Assembly: GCA_041690395.1 (NCBI GenBank) | Contig: JAWLHJ010000003.1 | Location: 352,001 to 416,000 of the forward strand | Origin: Longimicrobiales bacterium | Lineage (GTDB): Bacteria > Gemmatimonadota > Gemmatimonadetes > Longimicrobiales > Gaopeijiaceae | Direction: 5' to 3' | Length of the DNA: 64,000 nt | Part shown: positions 46,628 through 50,024 of the stretch, in pieces | Numbering within the stretch: position 1 is the first letter of the stretch | How the letters are laid out: each line of letters starts with the position of its first letter | Notes under the pieces: generated by a model | The model's database searches: none | The model's input: the letters and a program-made list of their open reading frames with translations, nothing else | What the model was told of the DNA's origin: nothing | Program-made: the position numbers and the translations under genes

Positions 46628-48283
46628 ATGACTTTCATAGAAGGTGGAGACTACGGGACCGGTCTTCTGCACGACTGCGTGAGCGAGGTCGCTCGCTCGC
46701 GCCCCGACGCGCGCGCCGTGATCGGCGAGGACCGCACCTTCACTTACGCCGACCTCGACGACTATTCGAATCGCGTCGCATCGGTGCTTCGGGCCCACGG
46801 GTGCGAGCGAGGGCATAGGGTCGCGCTCCTCATGCCCAACTCGGCTCGTGCGGTCGCGACGCTCGTCGGCGTGCTCAAAGCCGGGTGCGCGTACGTTCCT
46901 CTCGACCCGGCCGGTGGCATGAGCCGGATCGGGGACATGCTTCGCCAATGCGAGCCGAAGGTTCTGCTCGCCAACGGCTGCAGACCGGAGGTCGTGGCGG
47001 ACCTCGATACCCGAGGTGTGGTGACGGGCTGGCTCGGACCCGACCCGGCCCCACCGCGGACGGACTTCACTCTGGCCGACATCCGCGCCACGGCGCCGCA
47101 TCCGCCCGAGAGTGACGTGGGCCCGGACGATCTCGCGTATATCCTGTTCACCTCGGGAACGACGGGCTCGCCCAAGGGCGTTCCCATTCTGCACGGAAGC
47201 GCGCGGGCGTTCACCGACTGGGCCACCAGGCAGTTCGAGTTGGGTCCCGACGACAGGATTTCGGGGCACACCGCCCTGACGTTCGACCTGTCGATCTTCG
47301 ACATCTTCGTGTCCTTCCGAGCCGGAGCGGAGCTCCATCTGGTGCCGAAGCGGGTCCGCTTGCTTCCCCACGAAGTCGCTCGCTTCATCGAGGAGCGGAA
47401 GCTCACGCTCTGGTTCTCGGTACCGTCGCAACTGGCGTACGTGGCCCGTTTCGACGCCCTGGGGAAGGAGGACCTCGGCTCGCTCCGCCATGTGGCCTGG
47501 TGCGGCGACGTCCTCACCACTCCGAGCCTTCTCTACTGGAAGCGGAGGTTGCCCGGCGTCACGTTCACGAACCTCTACGGGCCGACTGAAACCACGGTCG
47601 CGAGCAGCTACTACGTGGTTCCAGAGAGCTTCGACGACCCGACGGCCACCATTCCCATCGGCACGGCATGCGCCGGGGAGGAGTTGCTGGTGCTCGACGA
47701 GCGCCTCGCGTCCGTCCCGGAGGGATCGGTCGGCGACATCTACATCGGCGGGGTCGGCCTCAGCCCGGGATACTGGAGGGACCCCGCGCGCACTGGAGAG
47801 GCCTTCATTCAGGATCCCAGGTCGCCCAACGGACCGGAGCGACTCTACCGCACCGGCGACCGCGGCAGGCTCGGGCCCGGCGGCACGGTGGATTTCCTAG
47901 GTCGGGCCGACTTCCAGATCAAGACCGCGGGGTACCGGGTCGAGCCCGCCGAGGTCGAGGGCGCCGTCCTGGCGCTGCCGGAGGTGGCGGCTTGCGTGGT
48001 CGTCGCCGTGACGGTGGACGACTTCAGCGGAAGCGCCGTCGGATGCGCGTACGTTCCGTCACCCGGAACGGCCCCGCGCGCCGGTGAGATGAAGAAGCGC
48101 CTGGGCGACACCCTCCCCGCCTTCATGGTGCCCTCGAGATGGCTCGCCCTCGACGAGCTCCCTCTCGACGGCCGTGGCAAGATCGATCGCGTTCGGGCCA
48201 GGTCGCTCCTGGAAGCCCCGCCGGACCCGGCCGACGGGTCGACCGGCGGCCACCGTCCACTCGACCAGCTTCAGCGCATATGA
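46628..48283 (+). CDS. Stand-alone amino acid adenylation enzyme (DltA-like)
   Basis: 'AYILFTSGTTGSPKGV', 'FDLSIFD', 'WCGD', 'NLYGPTETTVA', 'LYRTGD' and 'GKIDR'. Confidence 0.92.
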   Translation: MTFIEGGDYGTGLLHDCVSEVARSRPDARAVIGEDRTFTYADLDDYSNRVASVLRAHGCERGHRVALLMPNSARAVATLVGVLKAGCAYVPLDPAGGMSRIGDMLRQCEPKVLLANGCRPEVVADLDTRGVVTGWLGPDPAPPRTDFTLADIRATAPHPPESDVGPDDLAYILFTSGTTGSPKGVPILHGSARAFTDWATRQFELGPDDRISGHTALTFDLSIFDIFVSFRAGAELHLVPKRVRLLPHEVARFIEERKLTLWFSVPSQLAYVARFDALGKEDLGSLRHVAWCGDVLTTPSLLYWKRRLPGVTFTNLYGPTETTVASSYYVVPESFDDPTATIPIGTACAGEELLVLDERLASVPEGSVGDIYIGGVGLSPGYWRDPARTGEAFIQDPRSPNGPERLYRTGDRGRLGPGGTVDFLGRADFQIKTAGYRVEPAEVEGAVLALPEVAACVVVAVTVDDFSGSAVGCAYVPSPGTAPRAGEMKKRLGDTLPAFMVPSRWLALDELPLDGRGKIDRVRARSLLEAPPDPADGSTGGHRPLDQLQRI

Positions 48284-48561
48284 TCACCCCATCGCAAGAA
48301 CGCCGCGCTCCTCCGCAGCACGCGGGGGTGGAGGCGACCGTCCACCGGATCTTCCGCGACAGCCTCGAGCTCGACGTGGAGGTGGATACGGACGTGATCT
48401 CCGGCGGTATGCTCGACTCGTTGGCGTTCGTTCAACTCCTGCTCGCGCTCGAGGAGGAGTTCGGGGTCAAGGTCGACCTTTCGGACCTCGAGCTCGAGGA
48501 CTTCAGCTCCGTGGCCAATGTCGCTCGCCTGGTGACGGCCAGCGCGGAGGGGGCGGCATGA
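48280..48561 (+). CDS. Carrier protein (ACP/DltC-like)
   Basis: Ppant site 'GMLDSLAFVQLLLALEEEFG'. ATGA overlap with the A-domain stop. Confidence 0.9.
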   Translation: MITPSQERRAPPQHAGVEATVHRIFRDSLELDVEVDTDVISGGMLDSLAFVQLLLALEEEFGVKVDLSDLELEDFSSVANVARLVTASAEGAA

Positions 48562-48824
48562 CCCTCTGGACAGGGGCGCGGCCGGCCCCGGGAACGACCG
48601 ATCTGCTGGAGGTCCTCGACCGTGCCCTGACGGGCGGCATCGTGATCGCCTCGGACCGGAGGGTTCACGTGGTGACGCTCGAACGGGCATCCCTTCGCGC
48701 AAGGATCGTGGTGACGGCCGCGGAGACGTATCTTCGACATCCGGAGCCGGAACCCGGAATTCGTCCGGTGGCACGGGTCGTGGCCGACCGGCTCGGGCAG
48801 CGGCCAAAGAGGAGACACGGGTGA
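48558..48824 (+). CDS. Divergent GvpA/GvpJ-family (gas vesicle) protein, 88 aa
   Basis: 'LLEVLDRALTGGIVI...ARIVVTAAETYL' resembles GvpA 'LAEVIDRILDKGIVI...ARIVIASVETYL'. ATGA overlap with the ACP stop. Confidence 0.75.
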   Translation: MTLWTGARPAPGTTDLLEVLDRALTGGIVIASDRRVHVVTLERASLRARIVVTAAETYLRHPEPEPGIRPVARVVADRLGQRPKRRHG

Positions 48825-49198
48825 GCGATGTCGCGAAACGGATCCTGATCGTCGAGGACGACGAAGACAGCCGAGAGGTCTACCGGGAAGTCCTGGAAGA
48901 CAGCGGCTTCGACGTCGACACTGCGGTTACCGGCACGGAAGCGCTACGAATGGCCCGAGAACGGCATCCGGACGCCATTCTGATGGACATCTCCGTTCCG
49001 GAGATGGACGGGTGGACCGTCACTTCCGAGCTCAGCGGAGACCCCGGCACCGCCGACATCCCGGTCATCATCGTCACGGCCTACGCCTTCCAAGCGGACC
49101 GGGTCCGGGCGGAGGGCCTGGGCTGCGCGGGCTTTCTCACCAAGCCGTGCGAGCCCAGCCGGGTGCTCGCCGAGATCGAACGGACGCTCGGTGCGTAG
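48821..49198 (+). CDS. Single-domain response regulator (CheY/DivK-like)
   Basis: 'ILIVEDD', 'LMDISVPEMDG', 'VTA' and 'TKP'. Confidence 0.92.
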   Translation: MSDVAKRILIVEDDEDSREVYREVLEDSGFDVDTAVTGTEALRMARERHPDAILMDISVPEMDGWTVTSELSGDPGTADIPVIIVTAYAFQADRVRAEGLGCAGFLTKPCEPSRVLAEIERTLGA

Positions 49199-50024
49199 GC
49201 ACCCGGGCCATGGACGGCGGCCATCCGCCGTCCGAGGTCGCACGCCGAAGGGTCTCGGGCCGGCGGCGGGCGGGGGACGATACGTATACTGCATCGTCGA
49301 CACCGACGACCCGGTCCAGCTGAGTGCGCTCGGCATCGGCGAGAGCGAGGTCTACACCGTGCATGAAGCCGGCCTGGCCGCGGTCGTGTGCGAGACGCCC
49401 CTGCGGCGCTACGAGCCGACGCAGGAGAACCTGCTCCTCCACGAGACCGTCAACGAAGCGGTGATGCGGGACCATACCATGCTCCCCATGTCGTTCGGCA
49501 CGGTCTTCCGCTCAGAAGACGATGTGACCGAGATGTTGCGCTCGACGGCCCCCGCGCTCAGGGAGGTCCTCGCCGTGGTCCGAGGGAGGGTGGAGCTCGG
49601 CGTGAAGGTCTCGTGGGACCGCGAAGAGGCGATGTCCGAGCTCGAGCGCACGGACCCGGAGGTCCGGACGCTCAAGGAGGAGATCGGGCGAGGCGGCGAC
49701 GGATCGGCGTACTTCGCTCGGCGCCAACTCGGTCGCGTGGTGGAGGAGGCCATGGAAGAGCGGGCGAACGCATTGACGTGGAGCGTCTACGAGCCGCTCC
49801 GCCCCCTCTCCGTGGCGAGCCGGAATGCGAAGCTCATCGGCGACGACGTGATCCTGAACGTGGCCTTCCTCGTCGAGCGCGTTCGGGAGGACGAGTTCGA
49901 CCAGGCGGTCGAGCGGCTGGCCAGTCGCCACGAAGGCCTCCTTTCCTTCAAGTACACCGGACCGTGGCCCCCCTACAGCTTCGTGAACATCCGGCTCGAC
50001 CTGGAGTGGGCCGGATCCGACTGA
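49191..50024 (+). CDS. gvpF: GvpL/GvpF family gas vesicle protein
   Basis: 'YVYCI', 'HE.VNE.VM', 'LPMSFGTVF', 'ILN.AFLV' and 'YTGPWPPYSFV'. Confidence 0.9.
   Translation: MRRHPGHGRRPSAVRGRTPKGLGPAAGGGRYVYCIVDTDDPVQLSALGIGESEVYTVHEAGLAAVVCETPLRRYEPTQENLLLHETVNEAVMRDHTMLPMSFGTVFRSEDDVTEMLRSTAPALREVLAVVRGRVELGVKVSWDREEAMSELERTDPEVRTLKEEIGRGGDGSAYFARRQLGRVVEEAMEERANALTWSVYEPLRPLSVASRNAKLIGDDVILNVAFLVERVREDEFDQAVERLASRHEGLLSFKYTGPWPPYSFVNIRLDLEWAGSD

Follow-up and report, generated by a model that had tools for sequence, protein, structure and literature searches.

A degenerate GvpA kept beside GvpF and a receiver gene in an exopolysaccharide island of a Longimicrobiales bacterium, likely the remnant of a gas vesicle operon

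In the 64,000-nucleotide stretch of a Longimicrobiales bacterium studied here (positions 352,001 to 416,000 of contig JAWLHJ010000003.1, hereafter the window), an operon at 46628-50024 joins an amino-acid adenylation enzyme and a carrier protein to a degenerate form of the gas vesicle protein GvpA (GvpA'), a receiver protein (REC) and GvpF. This module is real, old and under selection, and is best read as an eroded gas vesicle (gvp) operon and not as a purpose-built partner of the carrier system. Its novelty lies in a split of selection within GvpA', together with the tight pairing of this protein with GvpF. In what follows, G000 is the window's genome, the other G numbers are the genomes compared with it, and L numbers are loci. 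The operon is made up of the following elements:

46566..46581, + strand: sigma-54-type (-24/-12) promoter motif TGGC-N8-TGCA, conserved in the leaders of related operons
46628..48283, + strand: stand-alone amino-acid adenylation enzyme of DltA/PltF-like architecture (TIGR01733, 380 bits, cut-off 317)
48280..48561, + strand: free carrier protein (PF00550) with its phosphopantetheine site at Ser47, the serine of a DSL motif
48558..48824, + strand: GvpA' (PF00741), a degenerate derivative of GvpA in which helix 1 is conserved and the beta-hairpin has eroded
48821..49198, + strand: single-domain receiver (PF00072), orthologous to the REC at the head of the family's full gvp operons
49191..50024, + strand: GvpF (PF06386), orthologous to the gvpF that comes first in the full cluster, with an unconserved leader at residues 1-28

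The five open reading frames (ORFs) are chained by ATGA at 48280, ATGA at 48558, GTGA at 48821 and an 8-nt overlap at 49191-49198, just as the initial annotation had described them. The ratio of nonsynonymous to synonymous substitution rates (dN/dS) between G000 and G002 is 0.12-0.28 for all five genes.

Judged from its sequence, GvpA' is descended from GvpA. It matches PF00741 with 27.3 bits (cut-off 25) and lies far under the NCBIfam cut-offs for GvpA (38.8 versus 100), and the profile of its family matches the solved GvpA chains 8gbs (E 1e-9) and 7r1c (E 1e-8). In hhalign, the match to GvpA reaches 97.7%. The absence of a GvpA profile or structural match at 48558-48824, which the initial annotation had named as an outcome that would speak against it, is therefore not what was found. 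All 13 reduced or extra gvpA copies score best against GvpA, and not against GvpJ or GvpS. The leads returned by the ESM Atlas were all under 0.9 and were gas-vesicle-like or unnamed.

Selection was estimated with Nei-Gojobori scripts, and GvpA' was compared in five disjoint pairs with canonical GvpA from intact clusters. Between G000 and G002, gvpA' has a dN/dS of 0.28 (0.15-0.47), with no nonsynonymous and 8 synonymous changes in residues 1-27. Over the five pairs, dN/dS is 0.06 in helix 1, 0.37 in beta1, 0.60 in the turn and beta2, 0.12 in residues 51-61 and 0.46 in the tail, versus 0.04, 0.00, 0.01, 0.07 and 0.37 in the same segments of canonical GvpA. The ratio of synonymous to nonsynonymous codons is 17:3 in helix 1 of GvpA' versus 18:28 at the tip of the hairpin (Fisher p 0.001), where canonical GvpA has 34:0; orphan and canonical counts differ with p 1e-9 at the tip and p 0.10 in helix 1, all of these p values being optimistic because the pairs share ancestry. 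The remnant as a whole is old and selected.

The residues involved follow the same division. Helix 1 is invariant from L16 to L24 in 25 GvpA' sequences, while the gas-facing V34 is Arg in 22 of the 25, the turn Gly is mostly replaced, and the position of V46 is mostly His, Arg or Asp across GvpA' (Leu in G000). The hydropathy of the gas-facing side of strand 1 is 2.0 versus 3.8, with the side assigned by alternation and by alignment to 7r1c. AlphaFold2 gives GvpA' a helix at 13-25 and no strands or hairpin, in a model of low confidence (mean pLDDT 50); a canonical GvpA with an alignment of similar size, taken from the unpublished genome G593 as control, gave helix-strand-strand-helix (pLDDT 71). 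The hydrophobic gas-facing hairpin side and the conserved turn of a structural shell GvpA are thus not found in GvpA', and construction of a shell by this protein would be impossible. Given that the shell-forming part is eroded and the helix to which GvpF binds elsewhere is conserved, the pair likely still acts together in a role other than flotation. Such a role had been suggested in the initial annotation and appears likely; the gvp set is incomplete and the genes are under purifying selection.

Genome-wide, G000 (98% complete) contains a single PF00741 match and a single PF06386 match. Profile searches of G000 left GvpG, GvpK, GvpO and GvpN unmatched, with the GvpK and GvpO searches also silent in every control genome, and gvpN and gvpO were likewise not found in the three full-cluster relatives tested. 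Searches of G000 by tblastn with the GvpG, GvpK and GvpS of relatives gave no match, nor did the N-terminal part of the gvp-linked PAS kinase used as query. The gvpG, gvpK, gvpJ/S and further gvpF/L paralogues of a functional cluster are therefore missing, and the earlier remark that the window holds no other gvp genes extends to the whole genome, where no full cluster was found. Given that these genes are missing from a genome that is 98% complete, it is very likely that this bacterium makes no vesicles.

GvpF scores 267 bits against PF06386 over model positions 1-245, a full-length result for the GvpL/F search that had been proposed as a check, and matches the solved GvpF chains 6l5d and 4qsg. 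Its core has a dN of 0.05 and a dS of 0.375 between G000 and G002, and has been selected since their split. A scan of the genome collection with GvpF alone returned 1 locus. The receiver has the residues of a single-domain response regulator, E12/D13, D56, T86 and K108, which we take to be the acidic pocket, the phospho-acceptor and the functional Thr and Lys. Its dN/dS is 0.12 (G000 versus G002), and it is 49-63% identical to gvp-linked RECs (130-157 bits), the best paralogue in G000 reaching 84 bits.

The origin of the module is best seen against the full clusters. The usual layout, also found in another part of the phylum, is gvpF-gvpG-arsA-gvpL-gvpS-gvpL-gvpK-gvpJ-gvpA-PAS kinase, and within the family a single-domain receiver opens the full cluster (G063, G068, G121). 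In G212, one contig ends with an adenylation enzyme (52% identical), a GNAT, a carrier, a VanZ-like gene, an extra near-canonical gvpA, an ORF, REC, gvpF, gvpG and arsA; a second contig holds the rest of arsA and of the cluster, followed by glycosyltransferase, sugar-transferase, HisKA-like and export genes, and the two contigs would join at arsA. The layout of the window is what would be left if everything past gvpF were deleted from an operon of the G212 type. It is likely that gvpA'-REC-gvpF is the remnant of a phylum-wide gvp operon that once stood in the exopolysaccharide island. The initial annotation had instead envisaged a minimal GvpA/GvpF pair recruited into the operon, with a receiver protein between the two genes. 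Given that the receiver is closest to gvp-linked RECs and is the gvp operon's own, and that G212 has the whole operon at this locus, recruitment of a pair with a foreign receiver is unsupported.

In the GvpF tree, the six orphan GvpFs cluster together (SH-aLRT 100), next to the GvpFs of G001, G212 and G032 and separate from the 19 remaining ones. The first tree had long branches (the second copy of G001, G350 and the outgroup). For the rebuilt, unrooted tree, 17 rows were removed (2 long-branch and 15 near-redundant order-level rows), as were the outgroup and two half-genes, and 4 metagenomic rows were added; the grouping was the same. The unpublished genomes G056 and G037 are rows of the trees and of alignments A3 and A4, and G056 further contributes to A5, to A9 and to one of the canonical gvpA pairs; the unpublished genome G363 was read as well, and the conclusions rest on no unpublished genome alone. 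Matches to PF06386 occur in 89 of 401 genomes of the order, where 66 have the same gvpF type as the window, and in only 8 of 300 genomes of the family. The GvpA' profile matches 29 of 401 genomes of the phylum sample and exceeds 51 bits in G000 only; all 11 of the other loci that were read are full-type clusters. Clusters that include an ArsA/Get3-like ATPase gene and end in a PAS kinase gene were seen across the phylum (L034, L038-L043, L059-L061, L096, L144-L154), and their GvpA has a predicted C-terminal helix.

The GvpA' family comprises 24 homologous clusters of 62-97% identity among 42 candidates. A scan of metagenomes gave 9 gvpA' loci out of 424 pattern matches, which together with G000, G002 and G001 makes 12 loci. 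Uniqueness to this genome and decay of the gvp genes had been put forward as grounds for discarding the proposal: the arrangement is not unique and is under purifying selection, while the hairpin part of GvpA' has indeed eroded. In all 8 loci that are long enough, gvpF comes next after gvpA', and gvpG follows gvpF in none of 7. Five GvpA' and five GvpF' clusters have longest contigs of matching size, which suggests further co-occurrences. In G006, which belongs to the same genus, gvpA' and gvpF are both deleted, on either side of an intact REC. The gvp-linked kinase occurs in 87 of 401 genomes, 23 of them without a gvpF-type gene; 14 of these were read (L108-L121), and 2 carry a gvpF stub and none a gvpA. 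Six other eroded loci (G032, G041, G347, G381, G425, G350) retain both gvpF and gvpA. The survey of kinase loci and the eroded loci together indicate that complete loss is the common end state, and gvpA without gvpF was not seen in them. The kinase itself outlasts the gvp genes, given that 12 of the 14 loci keep the kinase only, with or without REC, and it probably has targets outside the cluster.

The operon sits among exopolysaccharide genes, in an island that contains glycosyltransferase genes, a Wzy-like gene, Wza/Wzc-like genes and these further features:

42439..43953, - strand: NtrC-type sigma-54 activator (PF00158 and PF00072)
44027..46220, - strand: two divergent GNAT-family genes (PF13480, PF13527), in the same layout in G002 and G229
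50054..51085, - strand: convergent HisKA-like gene (PF00512), a marker of the island

The sigma-54-like motif noted at the outset holds up in comparison. TGGC-N8-TGCA is present in 12 of 19 upstream regions, that is, in 12 of the 13 leaders of island operons and in none of the 6 others. In an alignment of 8 rows whose flanks are just 50% identical on average, 12 of the 16 motif positions do not vary. The chance expectation is about 0.006 per 400 nt, a value that applies to a pattern fixed post hoc and to regions that are related. Within the window alone, the sigma-54-like motif is not above chance (48 matches versus 43 expected). The operon has a conserved GG-N10-GC element and an enhancer-binding protein encoded nearby, as expected of a sigma-54-dependent operon, and a scan of 46100-50300 found neither a sigma-70 promoter nor a terminator. 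The island's NtrC-type activator likely drives this promoter; in L141 and L142 it is directly divergent from the promoter and gvpA'. Two further TGGC-N8-TGCA sites lie at 55550 (+ strand), 5' of a trypsin-like gene, and at 25951 (- strand), within an fn3 gene.

What the pair might do can be approached from the literature on other organisms. In Halobacterium salinarum, GvpF binds residues 1-22 of GvpA best and this fragment is sufficient, with R15, K19, G20, D24, A27, R28, G33 and E40 mattering for the binding (PMC7688916); contact of GvpF with helix 1 of GvpA is likewise described in PMC9372576. In Bacillus megaterium, GvpA2 and GvpF bind strongly without other Gvps, and GvpG supersedes and displaces GvpF (PMC11445434). 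A hydrophobic lumen is required for the vesicle (PMC10903477). A sequence of events can be proposed in which the island's activator would drive the five genes behind one conserved motif, and the loss of the other gvp genes and of the operon's own PAS kinase would leave no vesicle. Constraint on helix 1 and on the base of the hairpin, with release of the hairpin and charges on its gas-facing side, would then leave no shell. GvpF would hold helix 1, as in Halobacterium and Bacillus, and without GvpG the complex would not be passed on and would persist. In the most speculative step, GvpF would serve as a holdase for amphipathic helices while the sigma-54/exopolysaccharide programme runs, and GvpA' would be the ligand or plug that comes with it. 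The receiver is likely a separable signalling passenger. That selection has kept GvpA' and GvpF as a useful non-polymerising pair, with GvpF predicted to hold helix 1 of GvpA', is the best of the explanations considered, and one that we regard as evenly balanced. The literature search turned up no description of a gvpA'-REC-gvpF module, most subscription papers being outside its coverage.

Several observations weigh against a useful pair. GvpA' keeps 3 of the 8 Halobacterium binding positions (R15, G20 and R28, mapped by spacing), the position of D24 is Ala, a change that weakened binding in Halobacterium, and E40 is Arg. The AlphaFold2 model of GvpA' is of low confidence. The orphan GvpF has a dN/dS of 0.25 versus 0.09 in full clusters, relaxed but selected, and its start is displaced, since a one-base deletion after ATG 49210, common to G000 and G002, throws this ATG out of frame (the aligned ATG is in frame in L134) and leaves GTG 49191 as the sole canonical in-frame start in G000. 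The pair is dispensable, being absent from the islands of G006, G229 and G074, and 12 of the 14 kinase-anchored loci lack any gvp remnant. The loci are also not independent, given that 6 of the 14 kinase loci come from one genus and that L141 and L142 are near copies.

Part of this evidence would fit a relic of mutual dependence that brings no benefit, a doubtful explanation that still deserves to be kept in mind. Here gvpA' would be a translational-coupling spacer whose hydrophobic hairpin eroded against aggregation, and helix 1 and GvpF would be retained only because GvpF makes its product harmless. The joint loss in G006, the absence of gvpA-only loci among the 14, the charged hairpin, the relaxed selection on GvpF and the frequent clean losses within the order would all be accounted for. 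Nonetheless, G006 demonstrates that a clean deletion is possible, and yet the pair has persisted over a mean dS of about 0.8 and in 24 clusters; moreover, in 4 loci gvpA' is the first gene behind the promoter, where coupling from upstream is unneeded.

The receiver leads to another explanation, which is unlikely, namely that the GvpA'-GvpF complex binds or tunes the co-transcribed receiver or an island kinase and feeds back on the sigma-54 exopolysaccharide programme. REC comes next after gvpA' in 9 of 11 informative loci and stands 5' of gvpF in G063, G068, G121, G212 and G032, and L141 and L142 are reduced to the activator facing promoter-gvpA'-REC(-gvpF). In Serratia, GvrB is a kinase and GvrC a receiver. 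Transcription of gvp in that organism requires GvrA, GvrB, GvrC and a sigma-54 site (PMC4982088). The receiver is nevertheless absent from G001 and L137, it survives free of gvp genes in G006, G229, G074 and G158, and the operon's own kinase has been lost in G000. The HisKA-like protein at 50054-51085, with relatives in G212, G032, G229, G074, G006 and L134, has no HATPase match and is possibly a pseudokinase or a phosphotransfer partner of the receiver.

The scaffold suggested in the initial annotation, in which GvpA' and GvpF would organize the adenylation enzyme and the carrier, is improbable. The genes are translationally coupled in G000, G002 and G001, and 6 of the 12 gvpA' loci have both enzyme and carrier intact upstream, but the carrier alone is visible in 1, the genes are broken in 1 and they are deleted in 4. 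A search with the adenylation enzyme yielded 13 loci, spread over 12 of 301 genomes of the family, of which 5 have adjacent gvp genes (G000, G002, G001 twice and G212), 3 lack them and keep REC (G006, G229, G074) and 5 have neither. Given that 5 of the 12 gvpA' loci have these two genes deleted or disrupted and that 8 of 13 enzyme loci are gvp-free, the scaffold is unsupported. The adenylation enzyme and carrier (dN/dS 0.17 and 0.15, G000 versus G002) are likely just transcribed along with the pair and would load an amino acid for decoration of the polysaccharide, with the GNAT genes as likely partners.

That the two genes still build gas vesicles or a GvpA sheet is hardly credible, since the gap-free match to the GvpA profile over 65 columns and the retained seam residues V39 and L41 are countered by gvpG, K, J, S, L, N and O not being found in the 98%-complete genome, by Arg on the luminal side, and by the requirement in Serratia for G, K and all GvpA and GvpF paralogues among 11 proteins (PMC4982088).

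Setting the vesicle aside, the useful non-polymerising pair bears on a wider problem. Whether gvp genes have a role other than flotation is still an open question in Streptomyces coelicolor and other soil bacteria (PMC4982088). Should a shell protein have been domesticated as a non-polymerising ligand of its own chaperone, with the complex and the receiver acting as an exopolysaccharide switch, which we think rather unlikely, gvp genes would for the first time have a defined task other than flotation, which would hint at why many soil bacteria retain them. The loss of shell-building, with one helix as constrained as in intact clusters, is the pattern expected of a second function. The structure of chaperoned GvpA is unsolved (PMC10903477), and this complex could become tractable with GvpA', which is naturally less hydrophobic and comes with a GvpF of its own but no GvpG. 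If the pair is instead a relic, it offers a well-sampled case of the erosion of an organelle operon.

Traces of expression come from one soil RNA library with contigs of a relative about 88-89% identical to the window. One contig, at 48417-48918, covers the carrier, gvpA' and REC, and another, at 48893-49976, covers REC and gvpF; contigs of this kind cannot demonstrate a single transcript. Across the neighbouring 14 kb the depth varies widely (0.6-687), which fits RNA, with DNA carry-over possible, and it was not used for ranking genes. Cover is low at 46403-46669 and absent at 50141-50407, from which alone nothing is inferred. The deepest contigs of the 14 kb, depth being a poor measure, belong to 57228-57659 (+ strand), which encodes a secreted-looking protein of 143 residues without a Pfam match that is kept in G002 (dN/dS 0.16) and G001.

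One further element lies at the start of gvpF:

49212..49233, + strand: 9-bp perfect hairpin at the displaced gvpF ATG, common to G002 (regional z -1.64)

Given that shuffled sequences reach this hairpin in 9 of 200 cases and that it is not kept in L134, L138, L139 and L142, it was rejected as a conserved RNA element. Recent foreign transfer of the operon was also considered and is unsupported by composition, which is neighbour-like (GC content 66-69%, third-position GC 0.76-0.87). A stand-alone gene of the GvpL/F family occurs beside an M24 peptidase gene in the two sister families (L104:6267-6917, L105:5424-6074, L106:4644-5327), where the neighbourhood is conserved and free of gvp genes; it is absent from the matches in G000 and is a second sign of this fold being used outside vesicle clusters.

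The neighbourhood varies among relatives. A very large gene with a GH94 domain (cyclic-glucan-synthase-like) lies directly 5' of the operon in G002 and G006 (L033:2-7162, L126:3-6545), and a GH94-type gene, recognized by similarity of its N-terminus, comes right after gvpF in L137, L138 and L142; it is absent at the window's site. A luciferase-like monooxygenase gene 5' of the adenylation enzyme (L114:10322-11221, L126:6917-7825, L129, L130, L132) is missing in the window and in G002. The CheB/CheR-PAS kinase gene, intact in the window (51082-54846), is broken across two frames in G002 (L033:11825-16000). In G212, type VI secretion-looking genes, judged from translated N-termini, lie next to the island with its nonribosomal peptide synthetase, exopolysaccharide and gvp genes (L097). 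Elsewhere in the window, two short ORFs on the - strand, 24977-25162 and 1836-2012, presumably resemble an insertion-sequence integrase stub and an antitoxin-like stub, respectively.

Among known systems, the DltA/DltC and PltF-type systems resemble the upstream half of the operon in having a free adenylation enzyme and a free carrier adjoining surface-polysaccharide genes, although the window's pair lies under the cut-offs for the D-alanylation proteins DltA (284 versus 476 bits) and DltC (39 versus 68 bits) and has GNAT neighbours. The known GvpA-GvpF pairs of H. salinarum and B. megaterium share with the window the co-encoding of GvpA-derived and GvpF-family proteins and the helix-1 region as the conserved part, and differ from it in that here no other gvp gene, GvpG included, is left in the genome, the hairpin is relaxed and 5 of 8 contact positions have changed. 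The gvp locus of Serratia sp. ATCC 39006 (PMC4982088) likewise has a sigma-54 promoter, an NtrC-type activator and built-in regulators, but Serratia makes vesicles, whereas in the window two gvp genes are left inside an exopolysaccharide island. Compared with the full Gemmatimonadota gvp cluster, the window is without seven internal genes and the kinase and has gvpA' 5' of REC, while it shares with this cluster the orthologous REC and gvpF, the GvpA ancestry and, in G212, the same island.

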